A program made the position numbers and the translations under genes. The notes beneath the pieces are model-generated. The model searched no databases. It was not told where the DNA came from and saw nothing but the letters and a program-made list of their open reading frames with translations. Positions 8,332-60,375 of a stretch of DNA of 64,000 nucleotides are shown here, in pieces. The stretch spans positions 101,874 through 165,873 of the forward strand of contig CAYXUU010000003.1 in assembly GCA_964468645.1 (NCBI GenBank), written 5' to 3'. Source of the stretch: an uncultured Bacteroidales bacterium (GTDB lineage: Bacteria > Bacteroidota > Bacteroidia > Bacteroidales > JAIOZK01). How positions within the stretch are numbered: position 1 is the stretch's first letter; every line of letters begins with the position of its first letter.

Positions 8332-11300
8332 ATGGGAATAGAAACTAAAGGATTATTTGTATTGTTAAGACTTACTACAAGTATCATAATCTTAACACTC
8401 TTTTGCCTTAAATTGTATTGCCAGCAAAGTTTTCAGAACACCAGGATATTAGATCCATCCAATCCTGAATATGTTCCAGGAGAAGTGCTTATTAAATTCA
8501 CTGATAATGTTACTGTTAAGGTTAAGTATGAGGCCAATGATCAAATAAAAGTTTCTACTGGGGTTAAAAGTATAGATGAATTCATTCAGGCTAGAAATGT
8601 AATAAATATAAAAAAGGTTTTCAGAGAGACAAAGGAATCTTATCAGCGAAAAGCCGGCAGCTCTCAACGAATAATAATTGATTATAAAGGTAAGCGTTAT
8701 GAAGCACCCAAACTTTATAACATTTATAAAATCAAAATTGGTGATGGCCAGGATGTTAAAGAGATTTCAGGTTTATTATCACAATATCCGGAAATAGAAT
8801 ATGCTGAACCCAATTACCTGGTATATACATCAGATGTTCTGAGAAAAAGCATAGTGCCAAATCTTCTGCCTTATTTAACACGCATACATAATTCGGGAAA
8901 CCGATCTCACAGGGATACTTATCCAAATGATCCCATTTATATGAATGGCAGTCAGGGATACCTTGATGCCATTAATGCCCCTGCTGCCTGGGACACTCTT
9001 ACAGGAGACACGAACCAGGTCATTGGTATTATTGACACCGGCCTGGATTGGGATCATCCGGATCTCGACAATAACATATGGTATAATTATAATGAAATCC
9101 CTGAAAATGGAATTGATGATGATGGCAATGGTTATATAGACGATATCAGGGGATGGGATTTTATTAATCATGATAATGATCCAGATGATGATAATTCTCA
9201 TGGGACACATGTGGCCGGTATAGCGGGTGCAGAGGGTAATAATGAGATTGGAATTACGGGGGTCCTCTGGGATGTTAAGCTTTTGCCGGTAAAGATTCTG
9301 CAAAGTTCCGGAGGTGGCACCTCTGCTGATCTTGCTGTCGGAATTATGTATGCTTCCAATAATGGTGCAACAGTAATTAATATGAGCCTGGGATCTTATG
9401 CTGAATCCCATACCGTTAAATCTGCCCTCGAGAATGCTTATGCAGGTTCAGGCTCAGGTGATGGATCCATACTTGTTGCCGCCGCAGGAAACGACAACTG
9501 GTGTATTTGCAGTGATTGTGGCCTTTGTTTCAGCATGTACCCTGCATGTTATTCTTTTGTAATTGGCGTTATGTCTGCAGATGGGGGATTTTCGAATTTC
9601 GATCCGTCCGGACCTGTTTCATTTACACATGCAGAAGAATATAACTATGAGATCTCAGCCCCGGGATTAAATATTATCAGCACCCTACCTTTTGGATCAT
9701 ATGGCTATTATACAGGAACCTCCATGGCTACACCCATGGTCTCAGCTGCAGTAGCCATAATGAGATCCTATAACCCCCAACAATCAATCGAAAGCATATT
9801 TGCAAAATTAATCCAGGGCTCCAGTAACAATATGCTTGACGTTTATAATAGTCTTGATCCGGTATTAAATCCTTCTTTAATTTTCATTAACTGGACATTT
9901 GCCGATACCATGCCCGATTGCAACAATGATGGTACCATTGATGCAGGTGAAACAATCACTATTTCATTAACAGCGAAAAACTCCGGCGGTTGGGCCGACA
10001 GTGTCAATGCCAGGATTGCCCTTGATCATGCTGCAGATTCAGCATACATAAGAATGGTTGACAGCACATCTTATCTGGGGGATATCTCCTCCTATGCAAC
10101 TGCCACATCAATTGATCCAATAATGGTATATATTGATTCATTAACGCCGCATTCCAGTAAATTACCTTTTAGATTTACAGTTTCTGCTAATAATAGCACT
10201 TCACTCAATGTACATGATTCAATGAATATTCAGAATGGCCAGGAGCTTTCCGGCATTTTGGATTCTACATTCACTTTAACTCCTGATAAATTGTGGTTGG
10301 TCAATCAAAGTTTTAGGATTGAGTCAAATGGGGTATTAATCATTTTACCCGGAACACACCTATTGATAGAGTCTTACTTTGGTATTATCTGCAATGGAAC
10401 TATAACAGGATTTGGCACCATTGATAGTATGATATATATTTACGGGCCGTATGGCATTCGGATAAATAATAATTACTGTTCAGATTTCACTTACACCAGA
10501 TTTGATCATTCAGGCATTGCACATGGGTGTGCAAATTTTCAAAACTGTGTATTCGAAGGATGTATCCCTTTTGGAACAATAAATCTTGAAAATTGTTTGA
10601 TCAAAAACACTGATAATATTAACCGGATTGGGTGGAACGGAACAGTTAAGAAATCAAATTTCATAAATTGCACCGGATCAATCAGTCGTAATGATCAGGC
10701 CTCCCTGAATCATGCTTATAATAACTTTTCGCAAATCACTAATAACGGAGCCTACATGGGTAGCAATAATTTCATAGGGCCAAATAATTTCATTACAAGT
10801 CATGATCAGGATATATGTGCTGCCGCCCGGGGCATTGGCACAATTCAATTACCACCATTATACTGGGGCACTACAGACTCAGTATTAATCGCAGAAAGGA
10901 TTGTTGATTTCTGGGATGATCCTTTATTATACTTCGTGGAATATCAACCTATATTAACCCAGCCTACTGATTCAGCACATGGTATAGTCTGGAAAGTGGA
11001 AATCAATGATATTGATCCTCAGGATGAGTATCTTGATCCATTGGGCAGTGAACAAGTAAAGTTTACAGTTTATTTCAACCGTCCGATGGATACCAGCTAT
11101 ACGCCATTATTAACCTTCAGTGCATGGAAGCCATATACGCATCATACTGTCAATGATTCTGCCAGTTGGAGTGGCGATTCTTTATCCTGGACAGCTTATC
11201 ATACAATCACTCAGGAAACTGGTGATGGTATCAATGTAATTAAAGTGTCAGGTGCCAGAGATGATGAAGGTTGGCTAATTCCACCCGAATATAACGGAAG

Positions 11301-12507: not shown

Positions 12508-12533
12508 TTTGCCGGTTATGATACAATAACATA

Positions 12534-15500
12534 ATGAAACCATATAATATCATAATACTCATTATAGGAATTCTGTTTTTAAAATCAGTAGAATTATTGG
12601 GTCAATATGGCTTCATGGACCCCCTTGCTATAGATCCTTTCCATCCTGAATATGTAAATGGTGAAGTACTGGTTAAATTTAAAGATAAAATACAGGTTGA
12701 GATTGACAACAAGGATTTGGTAAGGGTAAGCACCGGTATTAAAAGTATAGATGCCTTCTTAACCAAAAATAAGGTCTGTGATATCAGGAAAGTATTCCCC
12801 AATACAAGCCACTCTCAACAAGAAACTCTTTACATGAATGACTTCACAGGTATGCGGTACAAAGTGCCTAAACTCCATAACATTTATAAACTGATTTTTG
12901 AGGAAACGAAGGATGCTAAACAAATGGCGGAATGGCTTTCGCAAGAGCCTGCAGTAGACTATGCAGAACCCAATTATTACATCCACTCAACAATTACAAT
13001 ACCTAATGATGCTTTGTATCAAAGTGGTGAGCAATGGTACCTGGATGAAATACAGGCCCCATATGCATGGGATTCGGTTAGTGGCGACACATCTCAAATT
13101 ATAGGAATTATAGATACCGGTATCGATTGGGACCACCCTGACCTGGATGGCAATATCTGGAACAATTGTGATGAAATTCCAGGTAACGGAATTGATGATG
13201 ACGGTAACGGATTTATCGATGACATCAGGGGATGGGATTTCTTTAACAATGATAATAATCCTGATGATGATAACGGACATGGAACCCATGTTGCCGGAAT
13301 TTCAGGTGCTGAAACAAATAACTACATTGGAATTGCCGGAGTATGCTGGAATTGCCGGTTGATGCCTTTAAAAGTACTTTCCGGAACAGGACAGGGGAAT
13401 ATGGCTGATCTTGCTCTTGCAATTAATTATGCATCCAGCAATGGGGTTACAGTTATCAATATGAGCCTTGGGGCTTACGCGGAATCTTTAACGGTTAAAG
13501 CTGCACTTGAAAATGCATATAATAACTGTATTCTTGTTGCTGCTGCCGGAAATGATCATTATAAGATAGATACAATAACTCCTCCCCAAAACACCTATGC
13601 ACCACATTTCCCATCCTGTTATTCTTTTGTGATCGGTGTTGAAGCATCAACCTCTGCAGGTCAGCTTGCAGGTTTTTCAAATTTTGATCCATCCGGCTTT
13701 GTCTATTCAAAAAATCCATTGGGATATAATTATGAAATCCGGGCTCCCGGAGTAAATATTTTCAGTACATTCCCAGATGGTGGTTATTTTTCACTGACAG
13801 GTACATCCATGGCATCACCAGTTGTAGCGGGTGCCGTTGCATTGCTGAAATCGTTTATCCCGGATATCAGTAATGAAGATGTTTTTGCACGAATAGTTCA
13901 GTTTTCCCAGAATAGTATTTTAAATCTTCCAAATCTGTTAAATTCCACACTTGGTAATGACCTGGTTTACACTGATTACATGCTGGTGGATACTACAGCA
14001 GGGGCTGATAATGACGGCTATCCCGATGCCGGAGAAACTGTGGATATATGGTTTACAATCAAAAATGCCGGAGGTTATGCCGATAGTGTTTGGACCACTA
14101 TCAGCCTGAATTATACAGGGGACACGTCACTGGTGGCAATAACTGATAGTCTTAGTTACATAGGCAATCTCGATAGTGCCTCCTATAACAATAACATTCC
14201 GGCCTATACCACCATGACCGGAGAGGAGGATCCATTCCGGATTACCCTGAAACCTGGAATTTTACATGGTAAAATAATCATTTTTAATTATCAGCTAGGA
14301 TCCAAGAACGGTTTAACCAAGAGTGGTAATTTTTCAATAACCATTCAGAGCGGGAAAGAACTCAGTGGCCTTCTCGATACCACTTATACCATCACACCTG
14401 ATAAGTTATGGGTTATCAATAAAAGTTTCAGGATTGCCCCATCCGGTGTGCTTAATATTTTACCCGGCACACACCTGAAAATTGAAAAACCATTATATAA
14501 TAATGGAATTATTTATGGTTATGGAAATAAAGACAGCATGATAACCATTGAAGGGCCCCAAGCAATAACGGAGCAAGGACATGCATATTTTTCTTACACT
14601 GTTTTTACAGGGATGACCAACCCGATCAGATATCAAAACCTGACACTCCAGAAATGTTCCTTTCGTAATATCAATACCAATGCTTTATTACATTGTGAAT
14701 TAGATCTGACAGATTGTTATTTTGCCCCTGATGTTGCAGATGCTGTTTCGTGGGGAGGGGGAACAGCCAGGCGTTGCATCCTCGATAATTGTGGAGGAGG
14801 ATTTAATAGTGGAAATTATCAGCTTTATTACAATAACTTTTCAGGTGATCTGCATGTTTCCAAATGTAATCTGACAGGCAATAATTTTGCCGCCGGCAAA
14901 ACGAATGTAGTCTACACAACGCAAACGGCTGAATATGATTACGTTTTAAATCAATATTGGGGCACCACCGATTCAGCCACAATTGATGGAATGATATGGG
15001 ATTTCTGGGACAACCCTACCCTTGCACAGGTGATCTTTCAACCTATGTTATCCAGGCCATCTGATTCTGCACATGGGTTTCTGTGGAAAGTATTAGTCAA
15101 TGGTAAAAATCCACAGGTAGAATATCTTGACCCTGTTGGTGTTGAAAGGGTGAAATTCGAAGCAGTTTTCAGTAAACCGGTAGATACAACTTTTACACCC
15201 CTACTTTCATTTGGTGTCATAGCTCCTTATACGCAACATATCGTAGCTGAAGATTCATATTGGAGCACTGATTCATCCATATGGACAGCGTTTTACGATA
15301 TTGATCTTGAAACAGGAGACGGCATCAATTCCATCAGAATTTCGGGCGCAATAGACACTGCCGGACTTCCGGTTCCAACCGAGAATAATGAAAGGTTTCA
15401 ATTTATTATTCAGGCAGCCTCATCAACTGCCACACAGTTCCTCGCAATACCAGGTATCGGTAAAGTTTACCTTGAATGGCCTTATGAGCAAACTGATGAT

Positions 15501-16544
15501 TTTCTTGGATTTAACATGTACAGGTTTGCAATGCTAAACGATTCAGTTAGTACCGATACTTCCAGGATCAACAATGAGTTGATCTCCGATTCAACCTTTG
15601 TTGATTATGATGTCGTACCTGACTCAACCTATTATTATTGCTATAAAATTATGGGTACCGATTTGCAGGAAACCGGCTTCTCGGAGATAATTTCAGTTAC
15701 ACCTCTTTCAACTGCCAATGGAGATGCAAATGGAGATCAACAGGTAAATGTTCTCGATATTACATCCATTATTTCATATATACTGGAACAAGAACCAGTA
15801 CCTTTTGTTTTTGAAGCAGCAGATATGAATTATGATGGATCTATCAACATTCTGGATGTTGTGAACCTGGTTAACCTGATTCAAAACCTGGATTATGGTT
15901 ATCCTGAAAAACATGCCCCCGCTTATGTTGACTTTTCCGGTAATGAACTCTTGCTTTTTACTAACACAGAGCTCTCGGCCGTTCAATTCAGGCTTACAGG
16001 TTCTGGGCTTGACGAAGCAAAACTTTCAGGACAAATTCCTGGGTTTGAGTTTTCCTATCATGCAACAGATGATAATATTGTGGGTTTATTGTATAGTTTC
16101 AATAACAATATCATTCATGATGATACTGTTGGTCTCTTTTACATTGAATCAGGGGAAGGCTCCATCGAACACATACAAATATTGGGCTCTGACCCATATG
16201 GTAATCCAGTATATTTTAAGAAATACACTTCAAAATATTTGGCCTTGCATGATGAACTGGGTTACAAATTCTATCCTAACCCAATTTCTTCATCTTCAAC
16301 TTTAAGTATTAAAATTCCTGAATCCTTAATTCTGTGTGTTACATTATATGATATGAAAGGTCAAAAGATTTTTGAAAAAAATGATTGGATATCCAATCCT
16401 GCAACTTATGAATACCAGGTTCAAAATATTACCGAAAATGGCAGGAGACTTTTACCCGGGCTGTACTATTTGGAATTAAAAGGGATACCTCATAATAAAG
16501 ACAGAAAAATATTGAGGTCTGTATGTAACGTTATCGTGTTATAA
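12534..16544 (+). CDS. S8 family subtilisin-like peptidase with dockerin segment and T9SS C-terminal domain (paralog 2)
   Basis: 1336-aa ORF starting 26 bp after paralog 1. Triad motifs are IIDTGIDWDHPDL, HGTHVAGISG and GTSMASPVVAG. The dockerin is GDANGDQQVNVLD...ADMNYDGSINILD, and the CTD ends LYYLELKG...VCNVIVL. Confidence 0.9.
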   Translation: MKPYNIIILIIGILFLKSVELLGQYGFMDPLAIDPFHPEYVNGEVLVKFKDKIQVEIDNKDLVRVSTGIKSIDAFLTKNKVCDIRKVFPNTSHSQQETLYMNDFTGMRYKVPKLHNIYKLIFEETKDAKQMAEWLSQEPAVDYAEPNYYIHSTITIPNDALYQSGEQWYLDEIQAPYAWDSVSGDTSQIIGIIDTGIDWDHPDLDGNIWNNCDEIPGNGIDDDGNGFIDDIRGWDFFNNDNNPDDDNGHGTHVAGISGAETNNYIGIAGVCWNCRLMPLKVLSGTGQGNMADLALAINYASSNGVTVINMSLGAYAESLTVKAALENAYNNCILVAAAGNDHYKIDTITPPQNTYAPHFPSCYSFVIGVEASTSAGQLAGFSNFDPSGFVYSKNPLGYNYEIRAPGVNIFSTFPDGGYFSLTGTSMASPVVAGAVALLKSFIPDISNEDVFARIVQFSQNSILNLPNLLNSTLGNDLVYTDYMLVDTTAGADNDGYPDAGETVDIWFTIKNAGGYADSVWTTISLNYTGDTSLVAITDSLSYIGNLDSASYNNNIPAYTTMTGEEDPFRITLKPGILHGKIIIFNYQLGSKNGLTKSGNFSITIQSGKELSGLLDTTYTITPDKLWVINKSFRIAPSGVLNILPGTHLKIEKPLYNNGIIYGYGNKDSMITIEGPQAITEQGHAYFSYTVFTGMTNPIRYQNLTLQKCSFRNINTNALLHCELDLTDCYFAPDVADAVSWGGGTARRCILDNCGGGFNSGNYQLYYNNFSGDLHVSKCNLTGNNFAAGKTNVVYTTQTAEYDYVLNQYWGTTDSATIDGMIWDFWDNPTLAQVIFQPMLSRPSDSAHGFLWKVLVNGKNPQVEYLDPVGVERVKFEAVFSKPVDTTFTPLLSFGVIAPYTQHIVAEDSYWSTDSSIWTAFYDIDLETGDGINSIRISGAIDTAGLPVPTENNERFQFIIQAASSTATQFLAIPGIGKVYLEWPYEQTDDFLGFNMYRFAMLNDSVSTDTSRINNELISDSTFVDYDVVPDSTYYYCYKIMGTDLQETGFSEIISVTPLSTANGDANGDQQVNVLDITSIISYILEQEPVPFVFEAADMNYDGSINILDVVNLVNLIQNLDYGYPEKHAPAYVDFSGNELLLFTNTELSAVQFRLTGSGLDEAKLSGQIPGFEFSYHATDDNIVGLLYSFNNNIIHDDTVGLFYIESGEGSIEHIQILGSDPYGNPVYFKKYTSKYLALHDELGYKFYPNPISSSSTLSIKIPESLILCVTLYDMKGQKIFEKNDWISNPATYEYQVQNITENGRRLLPGLYYLELKGIPHNKDRKILRSVCNVIVL
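15714..15881 (+). other. dockerin-like segment in protease 2
   Basis: ANGDANGDQQVNVLDITSIISYILEQEPVPFVFEAADMNYDGSINILDVVNLVNLI. Confidence 0.8.
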
Positions 16545-16553
16545 ATCAAATTT

Positions 16554-19500: not shown

Positions 19501-20633
19501 GTGATGTGATTGGTTATAATATGTACAGGTTTACTAACATTACTGATACAACTTACGGTGATACCAATCTGATCAATAATAAATTAATTACTGATACAAG
19601 CTATATAGATTATGATGTGCTTCCGGATACCACCTATCATTACCTGTATAAGATAGTTGGAACAGATTTAGCTGAAAGTGATTTCTCAAAAAAGGTAAGT
19701 TGTAAACCAATGCCAGCATCTGATGGTGATGCCAATGGCGACGGGGAGATCAATGTTCTGGATATAACAACCACAGTAGCTTATATGTTGCATCAAAATC
19801 CATGGCCTTTCTTATTTTCTGCAGCTGATGTTAATCATGATCATGAGATCAATGTTCTGGATATCATAGGACTGGTGCAACTGATCAGTGTGAATAAGAC
19901 AGTTCCGTTAACAGCCCTGGTAGATGTGAGTGATGTGCCAGCTTATTATGAAATCACAAAGGGAAAGTTGGTCTTACAAAGTGATGGGAATGTGGCAGGA
20001 TTACAGTTTATTATTGAAGACAAAAGACAAAAGGATAAAGATCGTAGTTTTGCAACCAACCTGCAAGCTGTAACCTGCCACCTGCAACAGCTAAAGATCT
20101 TCAGCCTCCAGAAAGGTTTTGAATTCACCTATGCTCCGGTCGGAGACAGGATCATCGGTATTCTTTACAGCCTCAACGACAAAGTTTTACCTCAAGGAGA
20201 TATCCCTCTATTCCGCATGGAAGGTTCTGATAAAAGCCAACTCGAAATATCAGACATTTTCGGTGGGGATCTTAATGGGAATTATGTGCCCATTTTACGA
20301 AAAGGACAACAGATCAGCCAGGATATTTTGGCGGATTATGATCTGCGGGTGCAACCCAATCCATTCAGGGAGGCCGCAGAGATCAGTTGGCAACTGGCCC
20401 AGAAAGCAGAGGTCAATATTTCGATATATAGTTTGCAAGGAGAAAAGATATCGGATGTGTTTCGGGGCATACAGGAGCCAGGCAGTTATTGTATGAATTG
20501 GGGAATATCGAATCATGAATATCCAATATCCAACACCCAATTACAGCCTGGGGTATACATATGCTATATGGTGGTAAAGCCAGCAGCAGGAAGGGAGATA
20601 ACAAAAGATGTGAAAATGGTGATAATGAGATAA
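16554..20633 (+). CDS. S8 family subtilisin-like peptidase with dockerin segment and T9SS C-terminal domain (paralog 3)
   Basis: 1359-aa ORF starting 9 bp after paralog 2. Triad motifs are ILDTGIDWDHPDL, HGTHVAGIAA and GTSMSTPIISG. The dockerin is GDANGDGEINVLD...ADVNHDHEINVLD, and the CTD ends VYICYMV...VKMVIMR. Confidence 0.9.
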   Translation: MKRLLILVLVFYSFCVHPQNQQVYELSSSNDMDPENPGFIQDEVIIKFKDHVIPEIDINDGSVHTSIRSLDDLFIQYRITKAEKVFPAMSGKNKTFYIKIQGETTKLDPLYNIYKFKFDKSSNVEYLAVVLGKDPNIDYAEPNYIVYSIETYPNDPIYITGAQWHIDSINAPKAYDLTTSDTNQIIAILDTGIDWDHPDLTGNIWYNYSEIPGNGIDDDLNGYIDDIRGWDFVNLDNNPDDDNSHGTHVAGIAAAVTNNSLGVAGIAWNARLMPVKMLQSTGQGNSADFASAIFYAYQNGATVINMSVGSYGESLTVKNALEYAYSTSMLVAAAGNNFYNLDLAPMYPACYSFVIGVEATDYYGDLALFSNFDIDGPYASIHSDLLNYEIRAPGYGIYSTFPNGNYHALSGTSMSTPIISGAIALMKSYYSVISHEQIFVRLIQGTDNSLLDIYNSLVLSPAPELTCLKTSIIDTLSGCDNDGIADAGETILLNFDIKNYGGYADSVWARLRFGQYEDTTVATIIDSLSNVGDISAYASLGNEQDPFSIKIKKGIAHNRDIVFEYIISASNTDTITQPIIINVQNAKELLGVMDSTMYLTPDKLWLVNGSFRVGSNGHLIMLPGTNIILNAPVVNWGHVQGHGTPDSMINVYGPSVFDIGYYDLSYVHSYPGSTKPEAITYEQTSSFAIQKAQCYVSNCIFDGAVNFYLHNAYCQDCIFKNCGLNNWSTDTITRCNFYNIGYGLRLFSGSEYVSYCTFSNIHNNNIIYGGNKFYKNNFITNLSTTSYYGYNGGTYYQIPPQYWGTSDTSIIDQMIIDFYDNFPNYAIVLYQPILTTPSDSAHGFAWKIHINDLNPQNNNLDPLGVETAKFDVFFNRPMDTLTDPQLSFGVRSPYNQHIVSRNSSWSIDSMIWTAYYDINLETGDGLNYLRVQDAVDDEGLEIPVEDNKRFFFTIQAAGAQSISFTASAGIGRSELNWEKANTSDVIGYNMYRFTNITDTTYGDTNLINNKLITDTSYIDYDVLPDTTYHYLYKIVGTDLAESDFSKKVSCKPMPASDGDANGDGEINVLDITTTVAYMLHQNPWPFLFSAADVNHDHEINVLDIIGLVQLISVNKTVPLTALVDVSDVPAYYEITKGKLVLQSDGNVAGLQFIIEDKRQKDKDRSFATNLQAVTCHLQQLKIFSLQKGFEFTYAPVGDRIIGILYSLNDKVLPQGDIPLFRMEGSDKSQLEISDIFGGDLNGNYVPILRKGQQISQDILADYDLRVQPNPFREAAEISWQLAQKAEVNISIYSLQGEKISDVFRGIQEPGSYCMNWGISNHEYPISNTQLQPGVYICYMVVKPAAGREITKDVKMVIMR
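19719..19886 (+). other. dockerin-like segment in protease 3
   Basis: SDGDANGDGEINVLDITTTVAYMLHQNPWPFLFSAADVNHDHEINVLDIIGLVQLI. Confidence 0.8.
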
Positions 20634-20723
20634 CCTGAATGTCGTCAGGCAGATTTGAAAATCTGAAAATGTGTCAATTTGAAAATGAAGAAATTCAGTG
20701 TAAAATAAATTCATGAAATAATT

Positions 20724-23700
20724 ATGAAACTCTTAATTCGTGAATTCGTGGCTATTTTAATCTTAGCAGGAGGTTGTCTGCATGCCCAGAACAACTTCCA
20801 CAACATCCACATCCTTGATCCATACAATCCGGAGTATGTTCCGGGTGAGTTGCTCATTAAGTTTAAGGATGATGTTGTAGTAATACCTCATGTAGAAAAA
20901 AAAGGTGATAAAACGCGTATCACCACAGGCATAAAAAGCATTGATGAATTCATCCTGGATAGAAATGCTCTTGATATTGAAAAAGTATTCGGGGCAACAA
21001 GGGCTTCCCAACGAGAAACCAGATACATTACTGATTTTAAAGGCAACCGTATTCAGGTTCCTAAGCTTTATAATATCTATAAAATTAGGTTTGATGATAA
21101 ACAGGATGCGATTGATCTCGCCGCTTTATTATCCCAGGATCCCAGTGTTGAATATGCAGAACCCAATTACCTGGTATATAACATGGAGGTTATTGAGGGA
21201 ACCACAATTGTCGATTTAGAGAATTCCAGTTACAACTATCCTAATCAGCCTATTCCCGATTCCAAACCGCGAAGTACAAACACCATCCCCAACGACCCGC
21301 TTTACGCACAACAATGGTATCTTCCGGCTATTGATGCACCGGCTGCCTGGGACAGTACCACCGGTGATACCAGCCAGGTAATTGCCATTATCGATACTGG
21401 TGTTGACTGGAACCATCCTGACCTGGATGATAACATCTGGACAAATTGGGACGAAATCCCGGATAATGGAATAGATGACGACGGTAATGGTTACATAGAC
21501 GATATCAGGGGCTGGGATTATGTCAATGATGACAACGATCCGAGAGATGACAATTCCCACGGTACCCATGTGGCAGGTATTACAGCTGCCGAAGGCAACA
21601 ATGGCATTGGCATATGTGGTATGGCATGGAATGCCCGGATCATGCCAGTAAAGATGTTGCAGAGCTCAGGTTCTGGAAATTCATCTGATCTGGCCAGTGC
21701 TATTGAATATGCATCTGATAATGGAGCAGCAGTAATTAATATGAGTCTTGGTTCCTATGGAGAATCCATGACAGTAAAATCGGCATTGGAAAACGCTTAT
21801 TCAGCATCATTCCTTGTTGCTGCTGCAGGTAATGATGGATATAAGATTGATCCACCTTTTCCACCTTATCCAATCTATGCTCCAATGTTTCCGGCATGTT
21901 ATTCATTTGTTCTTGGAGTTGAAGCGACAAATTCTGGTGGTTCACGAGCAGGTTTTTCAAACATGGACCCTTCGGGAGCAATATTATTTAATAATCTGTG
22001 GAGTTATAATTATGAAATAAAAGCACCAGGTGTTGGAATAATAAGTTGTAAACCTAGTGGGAATTACTGGCAAAAGAGTGGGACATCAATGGCTTCACCA
22101 ATTGCGGCAGCCACAGTTGCCCTAATGAAAGTATATGATCCTTCACAATCACATGAAGATATATTTTCTAAAATTATACAAAGTACCAATTCTGGTACTA
22201 TCAATATTTATAACTGTATTACTGCAACCCTGGTACCCGAAATATATTATATTGATAATAAGCTTGTAGACACATTGCCTGGTTGTGATGGTGATGGGAA
22301 AGCTGATGCCGGAGAAACCATTGAACTTTATTATACAGTTAAAAATGCCGGTGGAAGCGCAGATAGTGTTTGGTCATTGATACGGTTAGGTCAGTTTGAA
22401 GATACTGCAATCGTATCGGTATCAGATAGTCTGAGCTTTATTGGCAGCCTTTCAACCTTTGCAACGATGCAGGGAACTAATGATCCATTCAGAATTAATA
22501 TAGGAAGCAATACAACAAATAACCGGAGCATTCGATTTGCCTACTTAATTTACAACAGAAGTACATTAATGGACAGTGGTGAATTTACAATACTATGCCA
22601 GAAAGGAAGAGAGTTCAGTGGATATTCACCTGGAACAACAGTTTTAAAACCGGATGAATTGAACCTGATAACAAACAACACAGTTTTTGATACAATAATT
22701 ATTAATCCCGGGACTACAGTTGCACTGTCACCTGGTAAATCAATTTTTATTAATAGTAAAATCACTGCCACCGGGAAACCTGATTCTTTGATATTGTTTA
22801 CTGTGAATGGAACAGGTTACTGGGGAGAAATAAAGAGAGTAGGTGGAGATCATATCACCATGAAATATTGCAGGATAGAATATGGAGGCAGTGGAACAGG
22901 AAATACCCTCAACGGTGCTGACACAATTGAGAATTGTATGTTTTCAAATAATTATACGGTATTAACTTATCAGGATTGTTATTTCATCAGAAATGTAATT
23001 CACCAGAATTGCGAGCCCGGAAACTATCAATTTTTATTATTCGGTAATCAGGGTATTACAAAATATAATATTGTTACAAATAACATTACTAAAAATAATA
23101 CATACATCCTGGGTTCATTGTCACCACAAAACGGTTATCACAATTTAGCTAAATATAATGTTGTATTTGATAATGAACAAATTAAAAATGGATTAAGTTA
23201 TTATTATGATTTTGGTATAGCTAATGATAACTCTTGGGGCGTATTTAATTTAGAACCCAATTTTTTTGGTTCAAATGATAGTGCTTATATTGAAAATCAT
23301 GTTCTTGATTTTTTTGAAGGATCGAATCACCCAATTATAATGGGTTATACAAATCATCTTTCATCCCCACCAACACAATGCCATGGTGTGGTCTGGGATG
23401 TTAAGATAAATAACAAATCGATCAATAAATTTGACAATCCTTATAACGCAACAACAGGATTGGGTGTTATTGGAGCAGAGAATATTAAGTTCGATGTTTT
23501 GTTTAACCAAATCATGGATACCGCCTACCATCCTTTTTTATCATTTGGTGTACGAGAACCCTATACCCAAAATGTTGTAATTGATAGTTCTTTATGGAGT
23601 TCAGATTCATTAACCTGGTCTGCATATTTTAACGTAGGGCTTGAAACGGGTGATGGAATTCAAAGAGTAAGGATTTCTAACGCCCGGGATATTGAGTATT

Positions 23701-24956
23701 TTGAAATTCCAATAGAAGATTCAAGGTTTGAATTTGTTATTCAGGCTGCCGGCGCTCAATCCATCAATTTTATAGCCACACCCGGCATAGGCAAAGTAGA
23801 ACTGGAATGGCCCCCGGCCAATACCCCGGATGTGCTGGGATATAATCTCTACAAATTTTATAATCTAACTGACAGCACGTATAGCGATACCAGCATGATT
23901 AATTCAGAACTCATTCTGGATACCCTTTACACCGATTTCTATGTCATCCCGGATACGACTTACCATTATTTATATACCATCATAGGTACAGACATGGCCG
24001 AGAGTGATTACTCCAAAAGAGTGATTGCCACCCCCTTCGATGCCGCCAACGGCGATGCCAACGGAGACCTCTCCGTCAATGTCCTCGATATCACTACCAT
24101 CGTTTCCTATATGCTCAATCAAAATCCAACACCTTTTCTCTTCGACGCAGCAGATGTAAATTCTGATGGCGAAATCAATGTCCTGGACATCATCGGGCTG
24201 TTTGATATTATCAGTGGTAAAAAAACAGCTCCCTTATCAACATTTGTTGATGTGAGTGATGTGCCAGCTTATTATGAAATCACAGAGGGAAAGTTGGTCT
24301 TACAAAGTGATGGGAATGTGGCAGGATTACAGTTTATTATTGAAGACAAAAGACAAAAGGATAAAGATCGTAGTTTTGCAACCAACCTGCAAGCTGTAAC
24401 CTGCCACCTGCAACAGCTAAAGATCTTCAGCCTCCAGAATGGCTTCGAATTCGCATATGCCCCTGTCGGAGATGAAATCATCGGAATCCTATACAGCCTG
24501 ACACAAAATGAAATACCAAAAGGTGATATTGAATTATTACGCTTCGAAGGACTGGATGTTAACGACATTGAAATCATCAACATCTTTGGTGGCGACGCGA
24601 ACGGGGATTATGTTCCAATTTATAAACTTGGTGAAGATGCTGGCATGAATGTACCCGATGGATTTGACTTGAAAATCCAACCCAACCCGGTAAAAGAGTT
24701 GGCAGTTGTTAGTTGGCAATTGGCAAAGGATGCCAGAGTTAACATCTCAATTTATGACATTAAAGGGCGAAAAATAACAACCCTTATGAACAATACACAA
24801 ACTGCCGGAATTTACCAAATTAACTGGCTAACCGGAAACCCGCAACCCGCAACCTGCAACCTGGAACCTGGAATCTATATCTGCCACCTGGAAGCCATAC
24901 CCATTGATGGCAGTAATAATGTGAAAATGAACGTTAAAGTCATCATCATGAAATAA
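20724..24956 (+). CDS. S8 family subtilisin-like peptidase with dockerin segment and T9SS C-terminal domain (paralog 4)
   Basis: 1410-aa ORF. Triad motifs are IIDTGVDWNHPDL, HGTHVAGITA and GTSMASPIAAA. Its central beta-helix-like region has diverged from paralogs 1-3. The dockerin is GDANGDLSVNVLD...ADVNSDGEINVLD, and the CTD ends IYICHLEA...VKVIIMK. Confidence 0.9.
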   Translation: MKLLIREFVAILILAGGCLHAQNNFHNIHILDPYNPEYVPGELLIKFKDDVVVIPHVEKKGDKTRITTGIKSIDEFILDRNALDIEKVFGATRASQRETRYITDFKGNRIQVPKLYNIYKIRFDDKQDAIDLAALLSQDPSVEYAEPNYLVYNMEVIEGTTIVDLENSSYNYPNQPIPDSKPRSTNTIPNDPLYAQQWYLPAIDAPAAWDSTTGDTSQVIAIIDTGVDWNHPDLDDNIWTNWDEIPDNGIDDDGNGYIDDIRGWDYVNDDNDPRDDNSHGTHVAGITAAEGNNGIGICGMAWNARIMPVKMLQSSGSGNSSDLASAIEYASDNGAAVINMSLGSYGESMTVKSALENAYSASFLVAAAGNDGYKIDPPFPPYPIYAPMFPACYSFVLGVEATNSGGSRAGFSNMDPSGAILFNNLWSYNYEIKAPGVGIISCKPSGNYWQKSGTSMASPIAAATVALMKVYDPSQSHEDIFSKIIQSTNSGTINIYNCITATLVPEIYYIDNKLVDTLPGCDGDGKADAGETIELYYTVKNAGGSADSVWSLIRLGQFEDTAIVSVSDSLSFIGSLSTFATMQGTNDPFRINIGSNTTNNRSIRFAYLIYNRSTLMDSGEFTILCQKGREFSGYSPGTTVLKPDELNLITNNTVFDTIIINPGTTVALSPGKSIFINSKITATGKPDSLILFTVNGTGYWGEIKRVGGDHITMKYCRIEYGGSGTGNTLNGADTIENCMFSNNYTVLTYQDCYFIRNVIHQNCEPGNYQFLLFGNQGITKYNIVTNNITKNNTYILGSLSPQNGYHNLAKYNVVFDNEQIKNGLSYYYDFGIANDNSWGVFNLEPNFFGSNDSAYIENHVLDFFEGSNHPIIMGYTNHLSSPPTQCHGVVWDVKINNKSINKFDNPYNATTGLGVIGAENIKFDVLFNQIMDTAYHPFLSFGVREPYTQNVVIDSSLWSSDSLTWSAYFNVGLETGDGIQRVRISNARDIEYFEIPIEDSRFEFVIQAAGAQSINFIATPGIGKVELEWPPANTPDVLGYNLYKFYNLTDSTYSDTSMINSELILDTLYTDFYVIPDTTYHYLYTIIGTDMAESDYSKRVIATPFDAANGDANGDLSVNVLDITTIVSYMLNQNPTPFLFDAADVNSDGEINVLDIIGLFDIISGKKTAPLSTFVDVSDVPAYYEITEGKLVLQSDGNVAGLQFIIEDKRQKDKDRSFATNLQAVTCHLQQLKIFSLQNGFEFAYAPVGDEIIGILYSLTQNEIPKGDIELLRFEGLDVNDIEIINIFGGDANGDYVPIYKLGEDAGMNVPDGFDLKIQPNPVKELAVVSWQLAKDARVNISIYDIKGRKITTLMNNTQTAGIYQINWLTGNPQPATCNLEPGIYICHLEAIPIDGSNNVKMNVKVIIMK
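24045..24212 (+). other. dockerin-like segment in protease 4
   Basis: ANGDANGDLSVNVLDITTIVSYMLNQNPTPFLFDAADVNSDGEINVLDIIGLFDII. Confidence 0.8.
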
Positions 24957-25037
24957 ACATAATTACCTGTTTGTATAATACGTGGCAATTTAGAAACCAC
25001 AAAGATCGCAGAGAAATATAGAAGAACACTAGAACTA

Positions 25038-25856
25038 ATGAAACAACTAAACAATTCAACAATTCAACAATTTAAAAAGCAGCTTTTATTACTAGCATTG
25101 TTAATTGTACTAACCATCAACATGGCAATCAGCCAGAACAATATCCTCAAAGTCATCGGCGGGGAAACCTATACCAATGATTCCGTTGAGATCAGCATCG
25201 ATATCGATAACGACAACAGCTTCATCTCTTTTCAATGTGATATTCTATTACCTACAACCATGCAATACATTGAAGGCTCGGCTATGCTTACAGAACGGTC
25301 ACAGGATCATGTACTGAACACTTCCGTACTCCAGAATAACCGGCTAAGATTATTTTCATATTCACTTAATAACAAAAAATTCCTCAGCAATAGTGGCACA
25401 GTTGCCACACTTAAAATCAATAGTGGTGATCTGGAGGGAATATATGAACTCATTGTGGAAAACGCAATTATTGGTGATAGTGCTTCCAATAATATCATCA
25501 CCGACTCAGTAAATGGGACCGTGAATGTTTCACCAGCCGGAATTTTTGAAAGGAAGATTCATCATGACCTTGGATTTTTAATATCCCCAAATCCTTATCA
25601 TCAATCTTTCAACCTGCATGTAGAACTAAAGGAATATGCTGAACTAACAATAAAACTCATCTCTGTAGATGGAAAAGGTATTATTTTAAATAAACATCTT
25701 GGGTGTTATACAAGCGGTGAGCATATGATCAACAGTGAAAGATTTCTTGAACCAGGTACAGAATATTCGCAAACGATGTTGATACGGCTTTGCGCTAAAA
25801 CAAATAACAACAGAATCTTAACGGGTATAAAGAAAGTAATTAAAACAAACTATTAA
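25038..25856 (+). CDS. cohesin-like module protein with T9SS-type C-terminal domain (small scaffold or anchor)
   Basis: 272-aa ORF with an N-terminal hydrophobic signal, one ~130-aa cohesin-like module and a C-terminal FLISPNPYHQSFNLHVEL... Por-like tail. Confidence 0.65.
   Translation: MKQLNNSTIQQFKKQLLLLALLIVLTINMAISQNNILKVIGGETYTNDSVEISIDIDNDNSFISFQCDILLPTTMQYIEGSAMLTERSQDHVLNTSVLQNNRLRLFSYSLNNKKFLSNSGTVATLKINSGDLEGIYELIVENAIIGDSASNNIITDSVNGTVNVSPAGIFERKIHHDLGFLISPNPYHQSFNLHVELKEYAELTIKLISVDGKGIILNKHLGCYTSGEHMINSERFLEPGTEYSQTMLIRLCAKTNNNRILTGIKKVIKTNY
25140..25529 (+). other. cohesin-like module (1 of 4)
   Basis: The pattern NILKVIGGETYTNDSVEISIDIDNDNSFISFQCDILLP...RLRLFSYS...GTVATLKI...IIGDSASNNIITDSVNGTVNV is shared with the three modules of the next ORF. 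Confidence 0.55.
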
Positions 25857-25869
25857 ACCTGAAGAAACC

Positions 25870-28311
25870 ATGAAAATATCCGGACGATTATCTACACTGA
25901 TTTTTATTCCCATGTTCTTTTTCTTTGGGTTATCACAAGCAGATAATGTGATGAAAATAAAATCCGCTCATACCAATTCCAATCAAATTGTAGAGGTGGA
26001 GATTACCATTGAAAACGACAGTTCATTTGTGGCCTTCCAGGTGGATATTCCGATGCATGATGAATTTGCATTCCTTCAGGATTCTATTTTTCTAAATCCG
26101 ACACGAAGTAATGCAAACCATATTCTTTCAGATACCATACTACCCGGTGATACCCTTCGTATCCTGGGTTATTCAACCAACAACACAACATTTACCGGTG
26201 ATACTGGGGTAATTGTTTCTTTTAAATTACAGGCAGGCAGTGATCCGGGGGATTATTTGTTTCAACTTATCGATCCCATCATTGGCAGTGTAAGTTCGAA
26301 CAATGTATTAACCAGTTCTGTAAATGGCACTATAACCATTAAAGCACCCGATATCTTTTTCAATATGTCACAGATCGATTTTGGGGAAACACCATTAACT
26401 GACAGTACCGACAGGAGTGTGACATTTTATAACCAGGGCAACCTGCCGTTGGATATTTCTTCAGTTACTTTTGGAAATCCTTATTTTTCACTAACCAGTG
26501 CCACAAACTTTATAGTGGATGCCGGGAGTAACATAAGCAAAACAATACGATTTCAATCGGTTTTAAAAGGGGATTATGAAATTGATATGATCGTCAGTTC
26601 CAACGATCCTGATGAAGGTACCTCAACAGTGAAGATGATTGCCAATGCCTTTGCAGTAAATGAGATTCATACCGGAAATATGTTTGCTTATTCTGGTGAT
26701 ACCGCCAGATTAACTTTTACACTAAATAACATGGAGCCATTCAATGGTTTTCAATTCGACCTCAACATGCCTGCTCCACTCAGATTTATGCAGGATTCAA
26801 TACGGTTATCTACACGCAAAACCGACCATATTGTTTCAGCGAATGTACTTTCAAATAATAAACTCAGGGTAGTGGCTTACTCAGCAACAAACCAATTTTT
26901 CACGGGTTGTAATGGAGCAGTGGTTTCTTTAGATTTCTATGTGGAAGGCATTGGAGGATATTATTCATTGAACCTGAACAATGTGCTAATAGGGGATTCA
27001 AACGGTATGAATTCTTTATCTGAATATTATAACGGGCAATTGCAAATCGCAGCAGCAGATATATCTTGCAATTCTTCACTGGCTTTTGGTGATGTTTCTA
27101 TATTAGGCACAGATACGAAAACACTCACCATTGATAATACAGGTAACGACACCTTGGAAATCACAGGGCTAAATTTTACAAATACTTCGTATAACCATTA
27201 TGAAACCTTGCCAATATCTATCAATCCAGGGTTTAGCGAACAGATCAGTATAACCTTCATGAAGGTCACCGAAGGTAACGCCAATGGAACCTTAAAAATC
27301 TACAGTAATGATCCTGATGAAAGTCCAAAATCAGTTGATCTCACAGCTTTTGCATTTGTTCCCAATTATTTATCGGTAAAAGATACTTCTTTTATCGTTG
27401 GAGATACGATCTATGTTGATATCCTTGTGGAGAACGTAGAAAACTTTGTCGGGTTTCAGGTTGAACTTCAGACACCTTTAATAATGCAATGTGTGCTTGA
27501 CTCCGTTGGACTTACTAACCGTCAAACAGATCATATAATACAGGCCTCTTTTGTTGATACTGCCACCAATAAGATCAGAATTTTTGCCTACTCGCTTTCA
27601 CAAAGTAACTTTACAGGATATGAGGGGTCCATTGCCAGGATACCATTTGTTTTGGATTCTTTGGTTGCAGGCATTTACAATATTGATATTACAGATGCTA
27701 TTCTGGGGGACAACCAGTCGGAAGATATTCTTTATTCATTTTCTGATGGACAGGCAACAGGTGTTGATGGCGTTCCGGGTTATACTACAGTACGGAACAT
27801 AATCATTAATGCCGGAGATACAGTTTGTTATAATGCGACAAATACAATTACTATTGCAGGCGATGGAACAACTGTAGTGGTCCAATCCGGTGGTTCAGCC
27901 ACTTTTATATCCGGGTATAAAATATTATTCAAACCCGGTTTTAATGCCCGCCCAGGATGTTATACAAGTGCCTACATCACTTCGGGTGATTTTTATTGTA
28001 ATGAACTAAACAGAACGGTTGTCAATCCTGATAATGATGAGATTTTCCCAATTCAGGAAATTGCAGATGAAGATCCAGGGATAAGGATCTATCCCAATCC
28101 GTGTAGAGGAGATTTCATCATTGATTTCATGAATAAAGAGTTAACCGGGGAAATTAATTTACTGAATATTCATGGAAGAAGATTATTTCAATGCTCGTTC
28201 TTAAAGCACAATAAAGTTATTGCGGATATCAGTCACCTTCCTGACGGTCTTTATCTGGTACTTCTGAAAACATCAGAGGCTTATTATTCTAAGAAGGTTA
28301 TTAAGAACTGA
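25870..28311 (+). CDS. multi-cohesin scaffold-like protein (3 cohesin-like modules, 2 Ig-like choice-of-anchor-D/ASH-type domains, T9SS C-terminal domain)
   Basis: 813-aa ORF starting 13 bp after the previous gene, with a signal peptide. Three ~130-aa modules alternate with two ~100-aa domains (FGETPLTDSTDRSVTFYNQGNLPLDI...SSNDPDEG and FGDVSILGTDTKTLTIDNTGNDTLEI...YSNDPDES). The Por-type CTD is IRIYPNPCRGDF...GLYLVLLKT. Confidence 0.7.
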   Translation: MKISGRLSTLIFIPMFFFFGLSQADNVMKIKSAHTNSNQIVEVEITIENDSSFVAFQVDIPMHDEFAFLQDSIFLNPTRSNANHILSDTILPGDTLRILGYSTNNTTFTGDTGVIVSFKLQAGSDPGDYLFQLIDPIIGSVSSNNVLTSSVNGTITIKAPDIFFNMSQIDFGETPLTDSTDRSVTFYNQGNLPLDISSVTFGNPYFSLTSATNFIVDAGSNISKTIRFQSVLKGDYEIDMIVSSNDPDEGTSTVKMIANAFAVNEIHTGNMFAYSGDTARLTFTLNNMEPFNGFQFDLNMPAPLRFMQDSIRLSTRKTDHIVSANVLSNNKLRVVAYSATNQFFTGCNGAVVSLDFYVEGIGGYYSLNLNNVLIGDSNGMNSLSEYYNGQLQIAAADISCNSSLAFGDVSILGTDTKTLTIDNTGNDTLEITGLNFTNTSYNHYETLPISINPGFSEQISITFMKVTEGNANGTLKIYSNDPDESPKSVDLTAFAFVPNYLSVKDTSFIVGDTIYVDILVENVENFVGFQVELQTPLIMQCVLDSVGLTNRQTDHIIQASFVDTATNKIRIFAYSLSQSNFTGYEGSIARIPFVLDSLVAGIYNIDITDAILGDNQSEDILYSFSDGQATGVDGVPGYTTVRNIIINAGDTVCYNATNTITIAGDGTTVVVQSGGSATFISGYKILFKPGFNARPGCYTSAYITSGDFYCNELNRTVVNPDNDEIFPIQEIADEDPGIRIYPNPCRGDFIIDFMNKELTGEINLLNIHGRRLFQCSFLKHNKVIADISHLPDGLYLVLLKTSEAYYSKKVIKN
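25942..26340 (+). other. cohesin-like module (2 of 4)
   Basis: IVEVEITIENDSSFVAFQVDIPM...LRILGYS...FTGDTGVIVSFKLQ...IIGSVSSNNVLTSSVNGTITI. Confidence 0.55.
26656..27048 (+). other. cohesin-like module (3 of 4)
   Basis: ARLTFTLNNMEPFNGFQFDLNMP...LRVVAYS...FTGCNGAVVSLDFYV...LIGDSNGMNSLSEYYNGQLQI. Confidence 0.55.
27361..27756 (+). other. cohesin-like module (4 of 4)
   Basis: IYVDILVENVENFVGFQVELQTP...IRIFAYS...FTGYEGSIARIPFVL...ILGDNQSEDILYSFSDGQA. Confidence 0.55.
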
Positions 28312-43783: not shown

Positions 43784-43837
43784 CATTACATCATTCATAT
43801 TCAGATTAACACACTATACAAAACACAATCTACAGCA

Positions 43838-60312: not shown

Positions 60313-60375
60313 ATAAAACCAGGTCCTCATTCATTGTAACCATATTTTTACTATATTAGCACAAATCCTATTTTG

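Follow-up and report, generated by a model that had tools for sequence, protein, structure and literature searches.

A candidate cohesin-dockerin protease operon with T9SS tails in an uncultured Bacteroidales bacterium

In the clostridial cellulosome (C. thermocellum CipA and its type I dockerin enzymes), a non-catalytic protein with repeated cohesins is combined with enzymes that bear duplicated Ca-binding dockerin segments, and both kinds of component have their likeness in the locus described here. The amylosome of Ruminococcus bromii is a cohesin-dockerin assembly for a non-cellulosic polymer, and in the non-cellulolytic Archaeoglobus fulgidus a cohesin and a dockerin occur in one polypeptide. 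The gingipains of P. gingivalis are T9SS-exported CTD proteases that form multi-protein complexes on the cell surface and on vesicles. S8 peptidases are a known minor dockerin cargo in cellulosomes (PMC12484212), and the Limousia mucinolysome, which has been modelled with AlphaFold3, is a cohesin-dockerin assembly on a non-cellulosic polymer that includes peptidases (PMC12997984). The closest system was proposed in silico by Williams et al. 2021 (PMC8542988) for Ca. Stygibacter (Cloacimonadota), a complex of dockerin-bearing S8/S53 and C25 peptidases with a cohesin scaffoldin that ends in a T9SS-type CTD. A search of the literature on dockerins and cohesins, T9SS, proteases and FCB taxa found no description of the present operon, and this Cloacimonadota complex was the sole related find. 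The first-pass annotation of this DNA knew of no characterised system of this architecture; that statement stands for experimentally characterised systems, although Ca. Stygibacter provides an in silico precedent.

The window analysed here is a 64-kb stretch of DNA from an uncultured Bacteroidales bacterium, a placement that EF-G similarity bears out. Between positions 8332 and 28311 it contains six ORFs, all on the + strand, that encode four S8 proteases, then a single-cohesin protein and then a three-cohesin protein. Successive ORFs are separated by gaps of 26, 9, 90, 81 and 13 nt; the span, common direction and short gaps (9-90 nt) originally given for the six ORFs were reproduced exactly. 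No terminator-like sites were found in the intergenic gaps of the locus, which was counted in favour of an operon. A sigma-70 promoter scan returned 92 sites against 82 ± 8 expected and is uninformative, as Bacteroidota promoters fall outside its model. The six genes are one operon. Screening with Pfam and NCBIfam detected no CBM or GH domains in any of the six ORFs, and the locus is therefore not a cellulosome, though it may work like one.

The operon differs from the clostridial cellulosome in its Gram-negative host of the FCB group and in its cargo, which consists solely of proteases without CBM or glycoside hydrolase. Each component is predicted to use a T9SS CTD, whereas the cellulosome uses Sec with SLH or sortase anchoring; in the operon the dockerin lies inside the protein, with a cohesin-like domain after it, and the cohesins are spaced by Ig domains. 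The mucinolysome and the amylosome belong to Gram-positive bacteria without T9SS and consist mainly of CAZymes. Gingipain complexes form via cleaved adhesin (HA) domains and A-LPS anchoring rather than cohesin-dockerin pairs, although a gingipain-family C25 peptidase with the dockerin, cohesin-like domain and CTD of the present proteases (the Doc-Coh-like-CTD cassette) was found in one related locus (L172). The A. fulgidus protein is archaeal, without protease cargo or a scaffoldin operon. The Ca. Stygibacter complex and the present one, both proposed in silico, share dockerin-bearing peptidases and a T9SS-type CTD on the cohesin scaffoldin, and the three-cohesin family of this operon is also found in Cloacimonadota. 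The Ca. Stygibacter scaffoldin, however, has 3755 aa with CBM2/CBM3 and its cargo is a mixture of GH and peptidase; PMC8542988 describes neither a conserved protease-scaffoldin operon, nor the Doc-Coh-like-CTD cassette, nor a Coh-Ig-Coh-Ig-Coh layout.

All four proteases begin with a Sec signal peptide and an N-propeptide, after which come a thermitase-like S8 domain, a stalk of ~600 aa, a dockerin, a cohesin-like domain and a predicted T9SS CTD, in that order. Protease 1 (ORF1, 1391 aa, 8332..12507, +) comprises the signal peptide, N-propeptide, S8 domain (9010-9816) and ~600-aa stalk, followed by the dockerin (11614-11805), the cohesin-like domain (11836-12198) and the T9SS CTD (12211-12504). 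The corresponding S8 domain, dockerin, cohesin-like domain and CTD lie at 13095-13907, 15708-15899, 15915-16247 and 16263-16541 in protease 2 (ORF2, 1336 aa, 12534..16544, +), at 17100-17867, 19713-19904, 19935-20327 and 20343-20630 in protease 3 (ORF3, 1359 aa, 16554..20633, +), and at 21372-22187, 24039-24230, 24261-24653 and 24669-24953 in protease 4 (ORF4, 1410 aa, 20724..24956, +). All four match Peptidase_S8 (PF00082) with 175-179 bits over a cut-off of 21.8 (E-values 3.9e-52, 1.7e-52, 5.5e-52 and 2.9e-51 for proteases 1 to 4), and a regex search found the Asp/His/Ser triad in subtilase order in each (D-T-G, H-G-T-H and G-T-S-M motifs), in agreement with the complete triad first reported for the four large ORFs. 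The best PDB relatives of the S8 domains are deseasin MCP-01, AK.1 protease and thermitase, deseasin MCP-01 (3vv3, E 4e-43) being the nearest solved structure to protease 4. The stalk is a beta-sandwich region with Ig-like and FN3-like parts and a weak beta-helix signal (weak Beta_helix match in 5/69 orthologues); no PDB relatives were found for it.

A dockerin had been proposed for each protease from its paired Ca-binding loops, and Pfam Dockerin_1 (PF00404) is matched above the cut-off of 22.9 bits by all four (29.9, 41.7, 30.3 and 36.5 bits for proteases 1 to 4) and is present in 77/77 orthologous protease tails. The first loop begins 272-300 aa before the C-terminus. By regex, the eight 12-residue loops, two per dockerin, carry D1, N/D3, D5, N9 and D12, and the earlier observation of (V/I)L at positions 10-11 was confirmed in 8/8; each loop is probably followed by a short helix. 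The dockerins are ~61% identical to one another. Across 46 loci the mean distance was 0.44 for the dockerin and 0.43 for the catalytic domain, with 0.54-0.74 for the other non-catalytic parts, so that by this measure dockerin and S8 domain are equally conserved. Elsewhere, proteases of the C25 and C10 families and giant adhesin-like proteins carry the same dockerin type, which is also common on many further ORFs of related genomes.

The single-cohesin protein (ORF5, 272 aa, 25038..25856, +) consists of a signal peptide, a cohesin module (25137-25541) and a diverged CTD (~25575-25853). The scaffoldin-like protein (ORF6, 813 aa, 25870..28311, +) contains Coh1 (25942-26352), Ig1 (26353-26649), Coh2 (26659-27063), Ig2 (27064-27357) and Coh3 (27361-27774), followed by a small beta domain (27784-27978), a disordered linker and the CTD (28084-28308). 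The layout first read from the letters, with one module copy in ORF5, three in ORF6 and Ig-like separators in the larger protein, agrees with Pfam and NCBIfam, which assign the separators to HYDIN/ASH/choice-of-anchor-D Ig domains. The four modules, of ~135 aa, share 28-34% identity. Their earlier description as cohesin-like was borne out by a profile of 141 orthologous modules, for which 17/17 PDB matches were cohesins and which aligned over its full length to a clostridial cohesin (C. acetobutylicum 6kgc, E 1.5e-4). Chain 2xdh, named just 'COHESIN', is among these matches and presumably derives from the A. fulgidus cohesin and dockerin protein. Pfam Cohesin (PF00963) was matched by 60 of the 141 modules (best E 6e-11), and no other family recurred.

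In the window itself the Pfam signal is low: ORF5 scored 16.9 bits as a whole protein and 19.5 bits as the module alone, both under the cut-off of 24.1, and no match was obtained for any of the three ORF6 modules. Homologues in relatives scored 112.8 (P0008), 76.9 (P0006) and 56.8 bits (P0020), about one third of the 202 homologues of ORF6 are annotated with PF00963, and the A4 cohesin HMM matched ORF5 with 149 bits. Queried with the four-module alignment, an exhaustive profile search returned 4346 matches and a word-indexed search 1. An AF2 model of ORF6 (120-sequence MSA, pLDDT 90.4) has three beta-sandwich modules of about nine strands. In Foldseek, axonemal Hydin-like and other multi-Ig chains rank first for the whole 813-aa model, and the cohesin dyad 3l8q (E 2e-10, TMt 0.31-0.33) is the one family-specific match. 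The ~135-aa modules of ORF5 and ORF6 are, as judged by family-level homology, cohesins, and the three positions in the scaffoldin represent classes that separated long ago. Across all cohesin classes 14 columns are conserved at 90% or more, some of them polar residues in predicted strands 3, 5 and 6; the canonical cohesin face for dockerin binding is formed by strands 8-3-6-5. With these columns and the ~61% identity of the dockerins, a single shared cohesin-dockerin specificity is plausible.

Each protease carries a further, divergent cohesin-like domain between the dockerin and the T9SS tail. In hhalign this domain aligned with each cohesin class at 93-97% probability (E 3e-10 to 3.5e-7), against 0.6-2.4% for the controls Ig1, Ig2 and CTD; a second comparison with the cohesin modules gave a probability of 94.3 (E 1e-7), and the protease 2 tail gave 95.6 (E 1.1e-8). 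The domain had no Pfam match in orthologous tails and was not detected in the proteases by an HMM of the four window modules, whereas profile-profile comparison detects it. Locally built HMMs matched the post-dockerin domain and CTD of protease 1 (105.9 and 78.6 bits) and of protease 3. Residues D35, H58 and R71, near-invariant in the canonical modules, are not kept in the hhalign alignments. The linker from the dockerin is short, and the cassette has a constant length, ~200-220 aa beyond the dockerin, in 77 orthologues; besides the C25 peptidase of locus L172, its non-S8 cargo includes a BACON/Ig protein and a Flg_new_2 protein. With one such domain in each of the four proteases, the window holds 4 dockerins and 8 cohesin-type domains, and the numerical match of four dockerins to four cohesin modules in the first-pass annotation, which missed the divergent domains, does not hold.

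By inspection, all six N-termini have the basic n-region and hydrophobic h-region of a Sec signal peptide. The claim that all six proteins end in T9SS tails was upheld by direct profile matches for two of them: ORF6 (Por_Secre_tail, PF18962, 40.7 bits against 27; TIGR04183, 39.2 against 23) and ORF2 (TIGR04183, 24.3 against 23). ORF1, ORF3 and ORF4 remained below the Por_Secre_tail cut-off (18, 20.7 and 25.1 bits), and the ORF5 C-terminus alone matched neither PF18962 nor TIGR04183. Support for these tails comes from orthologues, with Por_Secre_tail in 70/77 protease tails and 10/18 ORF5 orthologues, and a protease-CTD HMM matches the ORF5 C-terminus (iE 1.5e-5). No T9SS machinery genes were seen within the 64-kb window.

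The first-pass annotation had also proposed a synteny check in relatives, and the protease-scaffoldin core was found to recur across several FCB-group phyla. An ORF with S8 and dockerin lies directly upstream of a three-cohesin ORF, on the same strand, in 56 of the 57 loci with enough upstream DNA to be informative, drawn from Bacteroidales, Ignavibacteria, Calditrichota, Cloacimonadota, Kryptoniota and Flavobacteriaceae; the same pairing is present on independent metagenome contigs. In Lutibacter and Polaribacter (Flavobacteriaceae) the upstream partner is a giant non-protease NHL/FG-GAP/cadherin protein that retains the dockerin. Two loci (L014 and L028) carry a natural fusion of a canonical cohesin onto the protease, and some scaffoldin homologues are adaptor-like, with a terminal dockerin. 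Relatives usually have 1 protease per 3 or 3+1 cohesins; with a single protease copy being commonest, the 4:4 count is incidental, and its reading as a stoichiometry was rejected, also because the proteases carry cohesin-like domains of their own. A mirror-tree analysis with partial correlation on dockerin distances gave 0.47-0.56 for the cohesins and 0.46-0.51 for the Ig spacers; as the cohesins did no better than the spacers, the test is uninformative. The conserved gene adjacency is strong support for a joint function of dockerin proteases and cohesin proteins.

We consider it probable, at roughly 0.65, that the six genes encode a protease counterpart of the cellulosome, a T9SS-exported proteolytic complex held together by cohesin-dockerin contacts; the genomic linkage strongly favours such a Ca-dependent complex. 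We infer its binding, Ca dependence, stoichiometry, anchoring and substrate as follows. All six proteins would pass the inner membrane through Sec, and T9SS would then carry them over the outer membrane via the CTD of each. The CTD would be cleaved off, with the scaffoldins at least remaining attached to the surface. Ca-loaded dockerins would bind the scaffoldin cohesins, so that ORF6 could hold as many as three proteases and ORF5 a single one, and the paralogous subtilases would thereby be concentrated on the cell surface or on vesicles, where extracellular protein would be digested as nutrition. The cohesin-like domain of the proteases may be an X-module-like buttress of the neighbouring dockerin, or may accept the dockerin of a second protease and so extend the assembly. 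Were all components anchored at the C-terminus, a membrane-proximal dockerin could hardly reach the outer cohesins, and the model therefore needs released proteases or a flexible geometry. We more tentatively suggest, at well under even odds, that the Doc-Coh-like-CTD cassette is a portable, self-associating tether of T9SS cargo, allowing scaffoldin capture and head-to-tail chaining into 'proteolysomes' on cells or vesicles. Such a tether would be an alternative or complement to A-LPS anchoring across several FCB-group phyla; it may have been attached repeatedly to S8, C25 and C10 proteases and giant adhesins, with the scaffoldin positions as anciently specialised docking sites.

The post-dockerin domain could instead occupy the adjacent dockerin in cis, forming an intramolecular clasp, while the scaffoldin cohesins bind dockerins encoded elsewhere, or nothing. 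The constant cassette length, the short linker, the occurrence of the cassette on non-S8 cargo and the frequency of the same dockerin type on other ORFs of related genomes are in keeping with a clasp, but it leaves unexplained why a three-cohesin gene lies nearly always just downstream of the dockerin gene whatever its cargo, and the cohesin-like domain lacks several near-invariant polar residues; we regard this reading as unlikely. Less room still is given to the view that there is no cohesin-dockerin pairing at all, that the dockerin is a Ca-binding stabiliser and the sandwiches are spacers or substrate- or glycan-binding adhesin modules, the genes being co-regulated since a scaffoldin-like adhesin brings cells to proteinaceous particles. 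This view would fit the window modules that score under the Pfam cut-off, the mirror-tree result without specific signal, and the non-cellulosomal cohesins and dockerins that are reportedly widespread, with few said to have been shown to bind. It is at odds with a dockerin as conserved as the active-site domain and kept in partner genes whose catalytic cargo has been replaced, with polar columns conserved in all cohesin classes, and with the adaptor-like scaffoldin homologues.

It is very improbable that the cohesin proteins are dedicated subtilase regulators (inhibitor, chaperone or maturation platform) rather than display scaffolds. The tight gene pairing, with mostly one protease per scaffoldin, and the presence of protease inhibitors such as serpins and Dpi in cellulosomes (PMC12484212) would suit a regulator, but no inhibitor-like domain was detected, three position-specific repeated cohesins with Ig spacers and a CTD form a scaffold-type architecture, and the usual chaperone and inhibitor of an S8 protease is already supplied by the N-propeptide.

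Cohesin-dockerin assembly has been studied almost wholly in Gram-positive degraders of plant fibre. If the proposed complex is true, a dedicated protease-scaffoldin operon in T9SS bacteria would extend the principle to Gram-negative extracellular proteolysis and offer a function for hundreds of proteins labelled merely 'choice-of-anchor D domain-containing protein'. It also raises a concrete question on the fate of T9SS cargo once the CTD is removed, and protein engineers would gain a new and compact set of cohesin-dockerin pairs. Cultured strains carry versions of the system and make it directly testable, Draconibacterium sp. IB214405 with S8 and Prevotella sp. tf2-5 with C10; among complete MAGs, OY762227.1 and OY787449.1 have the operon. 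Carrier bacteria are common in sediments, digesters, the rumen and marine particles, and the operon would help to account for the attack on particulate protein by abundant uncultured Bacteroidales, Ignavibacteria and their relatives.

Six ORFs occupy the forward strand at 8332-12507, 12534-16544, 16554-20633 and 20724-24956 (ORF1 to ORF4, proteases of 1391, 1336, 1359 and 1410 aa), 25038-25856 (ORF5, a single-cohesin protein) and 25870-28311 (ORF6, a scaffoldin-like protein with three cohesins). An ORF check verified the coordinates, common strand and short spacing reported in the first-pass annotation, successive ORFs being separated by 26, 9, 90, 81 and 13 nt. No terminator-like hairpin was found in these gaps, and the six ORFs are therefore likely to form a single operon. 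No other dockerin, cohesin or S8 protease of the operon's type was found elsewhere in the 64-kb window. Window GC is ~39%. No species representative exceeds 78% identity to the EF-G-like gene, whose best matches are all uncultured Bacteroidales.

ORF1 to ORF4 each have a hydrophobic N-terminal signal, matches to Peptidase_S8_N/fervidolysin-type propeptides, a Pfam Peptidase_S8 match at E ~1e-52 and the D/H/S motifs, in agreement with their initial assignment as S8 subtilases with complete triads. The closest solved structures are deseasin MCP-01, AK.1 protease and thermitase. Each protease also contains two 12-residue loops with D1, N/D3, D5, N9 and D12, positions 10-11 being (V/I)L. The proposed dockerins were upheld by Pfam, with Dockerin_1 scores of 29.9-41.7 bits in all four proteases (gathering score 22.9).

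A module of ~135 aa is present once in ORF5 and three times in ORF6, where the copies are separated by two HYDIN/ASH/choice-of-anchor-D Ig domains; pairwise identity is 28-34%. Taken singly, the window modules fall under the Pfam Cohesin cut-off (16.9-19.5 bits, with no match for the ORF6 copies). Searched against 1.84 billion representatives, a profile built from these four modules matched 4346 proteins at E<1e-3, most with the ORF6-like three-module layout and some with up to 14 modules. Relatives score 57-113 bits against Pfam Cohesin and carry a C-terminal Por_Secre_tail. PF00963 was matched at E<0.01 by 60 of the 141 modules collected from the window and 70-odd genomes, and no other family was recurrent. 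When the 141-module profile was compared with the PDB, all 17 sequences matched were cohesins, including one from C. acetobutylicum that aligned end to end; a smaller profile agreed. An AlphaFold2 model of ORF6 (120 homologues, mean pLDDT 90.4) contains three roughly nine-stranded sandwiches at residues 25-161, 264-397 and 498-634, the remainder being two Ig domains, a small beta domain, a disordered linker and the T9SS C-terminal sorting domain (CTD). Long multi-Ig chains dominated the Foldseek list obtained with the whole model as query, in which the sole family-specific match was the type II cohesin dyad 3l8q (E 2e-10). From profiles and model together, the ORF5 and ORF6 modules were accepted as divergent cohesins, as first proposed, at the level of the family.

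Profile-profile comparison identified a further cohesin-like domain of ~120 aa between the dockerin and the CTD of each protease. In hhalign, 77 orthologous tails matched the cohesin modules with probabilities of 94-96% (E 1e-7 to 1e-8), and the post-dockerin domain matched each cohesin class separately at 93-96.7%, against 0.6-2.4% for control comparisons with the two Ig domains and CTD of ORF6. The protease C-terminus, by these alignments, is therefore a cassette of dockerin, cohesin-like domain and CTD, and the stretch C-terminal to the dockerin is a constant ~200-220 aa in nearly all orthologues. The window total consequently comes to four dockerins and eight cohesin-type domains, not the four cohesin modules counted initially, the other four being those of the proteases. 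The hhalign alignments show that the cassette domain retains core motifs (the Q of 'FQ', and 'YS') and lacks the polar residues D35, H58 and R71, which are nearly invariant in canonical modules; its surface probably differs from theirs. Between proteases 3 and 4, the cohesin-like domains (19935-20327 and 24261-24653) are 76% identical and have a common insertion of ~30 aa (…IIEDKRQKDKDRSFATNLQAVTCH…), the remaining non-catalytic domains of this pair being 41-70% identical, which suggests recent duplication or gene conversion.

A T9SS tail had been assigned to all six proteins. By Pfam and NCBIfam profiles the CTD is unambiguous in ORF6 and marginal in the proteases, ORF2 exceeding the TIGR04183 cut-off and ORF1, ORF3 and ORF4 falling under that of Pfam; ORF5 alone gave no T9SS-tail profile match. 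Por_Secre_tail matched 70/77 orthologous protease tails and 10/18 ORF5 orthologues, which supports the predicted tails on the proteases and ORF5. Another T9SS protease in the window, a 346-aa Peptidase_C10 (streptopain family) at 60373-61413 (+), carries a Por_Secre_tail CTD and lacks a dockerin. A Fib_succ_major domain, at the end or elsewhere, is present in three large proteins with PKD, Laminin_G_3 and FN3 domains, encoded at 44806-48699, 51049-52680 and 54984-60086 (+), with an AraC/TPR regulator among them (49056-50822). Between 56 and 60 kb, GC increases to 0.43-0.47. ORFs of 248-539 aa at 4692-6311 (-), 29426-30172 (-), 42728-44809 (+) and 53874-54968 (+) gave no Pfam match at the thresholds applied.

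Searches returned 202 ORF6 homologues at E<1e-10, mostly named 'choice-of-anchor D domain-containing protein', with PF00963 on record for about a third. Scanning one genome per species located 77 loci, in Bacteroidales, Prolixibacteraceae/Draconibacterium, Lentimicrobiaceae, Paludibacter, Chitinophagaceae and Flavobacteriaceae, and also in Ignavibacteria, Calditrichota, Cloacimonadota, Kryptoniota and Neomarinimicrobiota. Synteny was scored with HMMs built from the window at the 57 loci with enough upstream DNA. At 56 of these, an S8-dockerin ORF of ~1330-1450 aa lies directly 5' of the three-cohesin ORF on the same strand, and the same pairing occurs on independent metagenome contigs. An ORF5-like gene was present at 17/56 loci, and protease copies, which are lower bounds given the 10-kb flank, numbered one at 43 loci, two at nine and three at four. 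In the closest relative, the Bacteroidales MAG L001, ORF5-like and ORF6-like genes come after a run of three or more proteases. The conserved core is one protease and one three-cohesin protein, of which the window is an expanded version, so the match of four dockerins to four cohesins originally remarked on is incidental. On one Bacteroidales contig (CAISJJ010000350.1; L003 and L004), two three-cohesin genes occur together with four or more S8-dockerin genes; window-like expansions thus arise independently. Short contigs with the operon in MAGs labelled Thioalkalivibrio, Thermoplasmatota, 'archaeon', Archaeoglobus and Mollicutes (L010, L015, L037, L074, L173) more likely reflect binning contamination than true hosts. 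For the three scaffoldin positions, the nearest neighbour in another genome was at the same position in 69/69, 68/70 and 66/68 cases; by sequence the positions are separate ancient classes, and 14 columns are ≥90% conserved across all cohesin classes. Over 46 loci, mean distance was 0.44 for the dockerin and 0.43 for the catalytic domain, compared with 0.54-0.74 for cohesins, Ig spacers, stalk and CTD; the dockerin is under strong purifying selection.

The partner of the three-cohesin gene varies. In Lutibacter agarilyticus DSM 29150 (L076, 3-9983) and Polaribacter sp. HL-MS24 (L077, 917-9631), both Flavobacteriaceae, the 5' gene encodes an NHL/FG-GAP/cadherin protein of 2900-3300 aa in which Dockerin_1 is kept and the S8 protease is absent. 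In two 1404-aa proteases (L014, 6491-10702; L028, 35-4246), the post-dockerin position is taken by a canonical cohesin module (117 and 114 bits) that is most similar to the ORF5 class; neither locus has a separate small cohesin ORF, and these are apparently fusions of a protease with an ORF5-type gene. Some three-cohesin homologues (P0036, P0038, P0067, P0117, P0133 and L239, 10001-12466) end in a dockerin-like segment in place of the CTD, which makes them adaptor-like; in L239, an S8 protease with dockerin and CTD is encoded directly upstream. In a dockerin-motif scan, many further ORFs proved to bear this dockerin type, among them a Peptidase_C25 (gingipain family) with the full cassette in a Bacteroidales MAG from buffalo abomasum (L172, 4290-7112). 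Another instance is the cultured Prevotella sp. tf2-5 (L181, 3566-13092), in which two Peptidase_C10 proteins have Inhibitor_I69 and a C-terminal dockerin, one also with BspA-type LRRs, and a 230-aa cohesin ORF lies between them.

The best reading of these domain identities, the operon layout, a pairing kept irrespective of cargo, the fusions and the selection on the dockerin is a T9SS-exported protease complex assembled by cohesin-dockerin contacts. By analogy with cellulosomes and with type A CTD cargo, the dockerin would dock in a Ca-dependent manner onto the scaffoldin cohesins at their 8-3-6-5 face, the CTD would be removed, at least the scaffoldins would be retained at the cell surface, and the complex would serve extracellular protein digestion. 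This reading poses a geometric problem, as every component has a predicted CTD and the dockerin adjoins it; proteases may be released and then recaptured, or assembly may be lateral.

The cohesin-like domain of the cassette may act as a buttress, as a cis clasp or as a chain extender. As a clasp it would bind the dockerin of its own polypeptide, and a rival view holds that dockerins and cohesins do not bind each other at all; as complete explanations, both are made less likely by the adjacency of protease and scaffoldin genes. Alternatively, the cohesin proteins might regulate the proteases. An assembled protease complex, the preferred reading, would be cellulosome-like in its working and is not a cellulosome: it lacks CBMs and glycoside hydrolases, and differs in its T9SS export and internal dockerin. 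The nearest precedent is an in-silico inference for Ca. Stygibacter (Cloacimonadota), comprising dockerin-bearing GH18, GH57, S8/S53 and C25 enzymes and a cohesin scaffoldin with a CTD (PMC8542988). Substrate-specialised cohesin-dockerin complexes are known in Firmicutes, for example the mucinolysome (PMC12997984). The literature searched contained no description of the conserved S8-scaffoldin operon, the Coh-Ig-Coh-Ig-Coh family or the dockerin, cohesin-like, CTD cassette. The protease-scaffoldin system is real and widespread, and its current annotation is uninformative.
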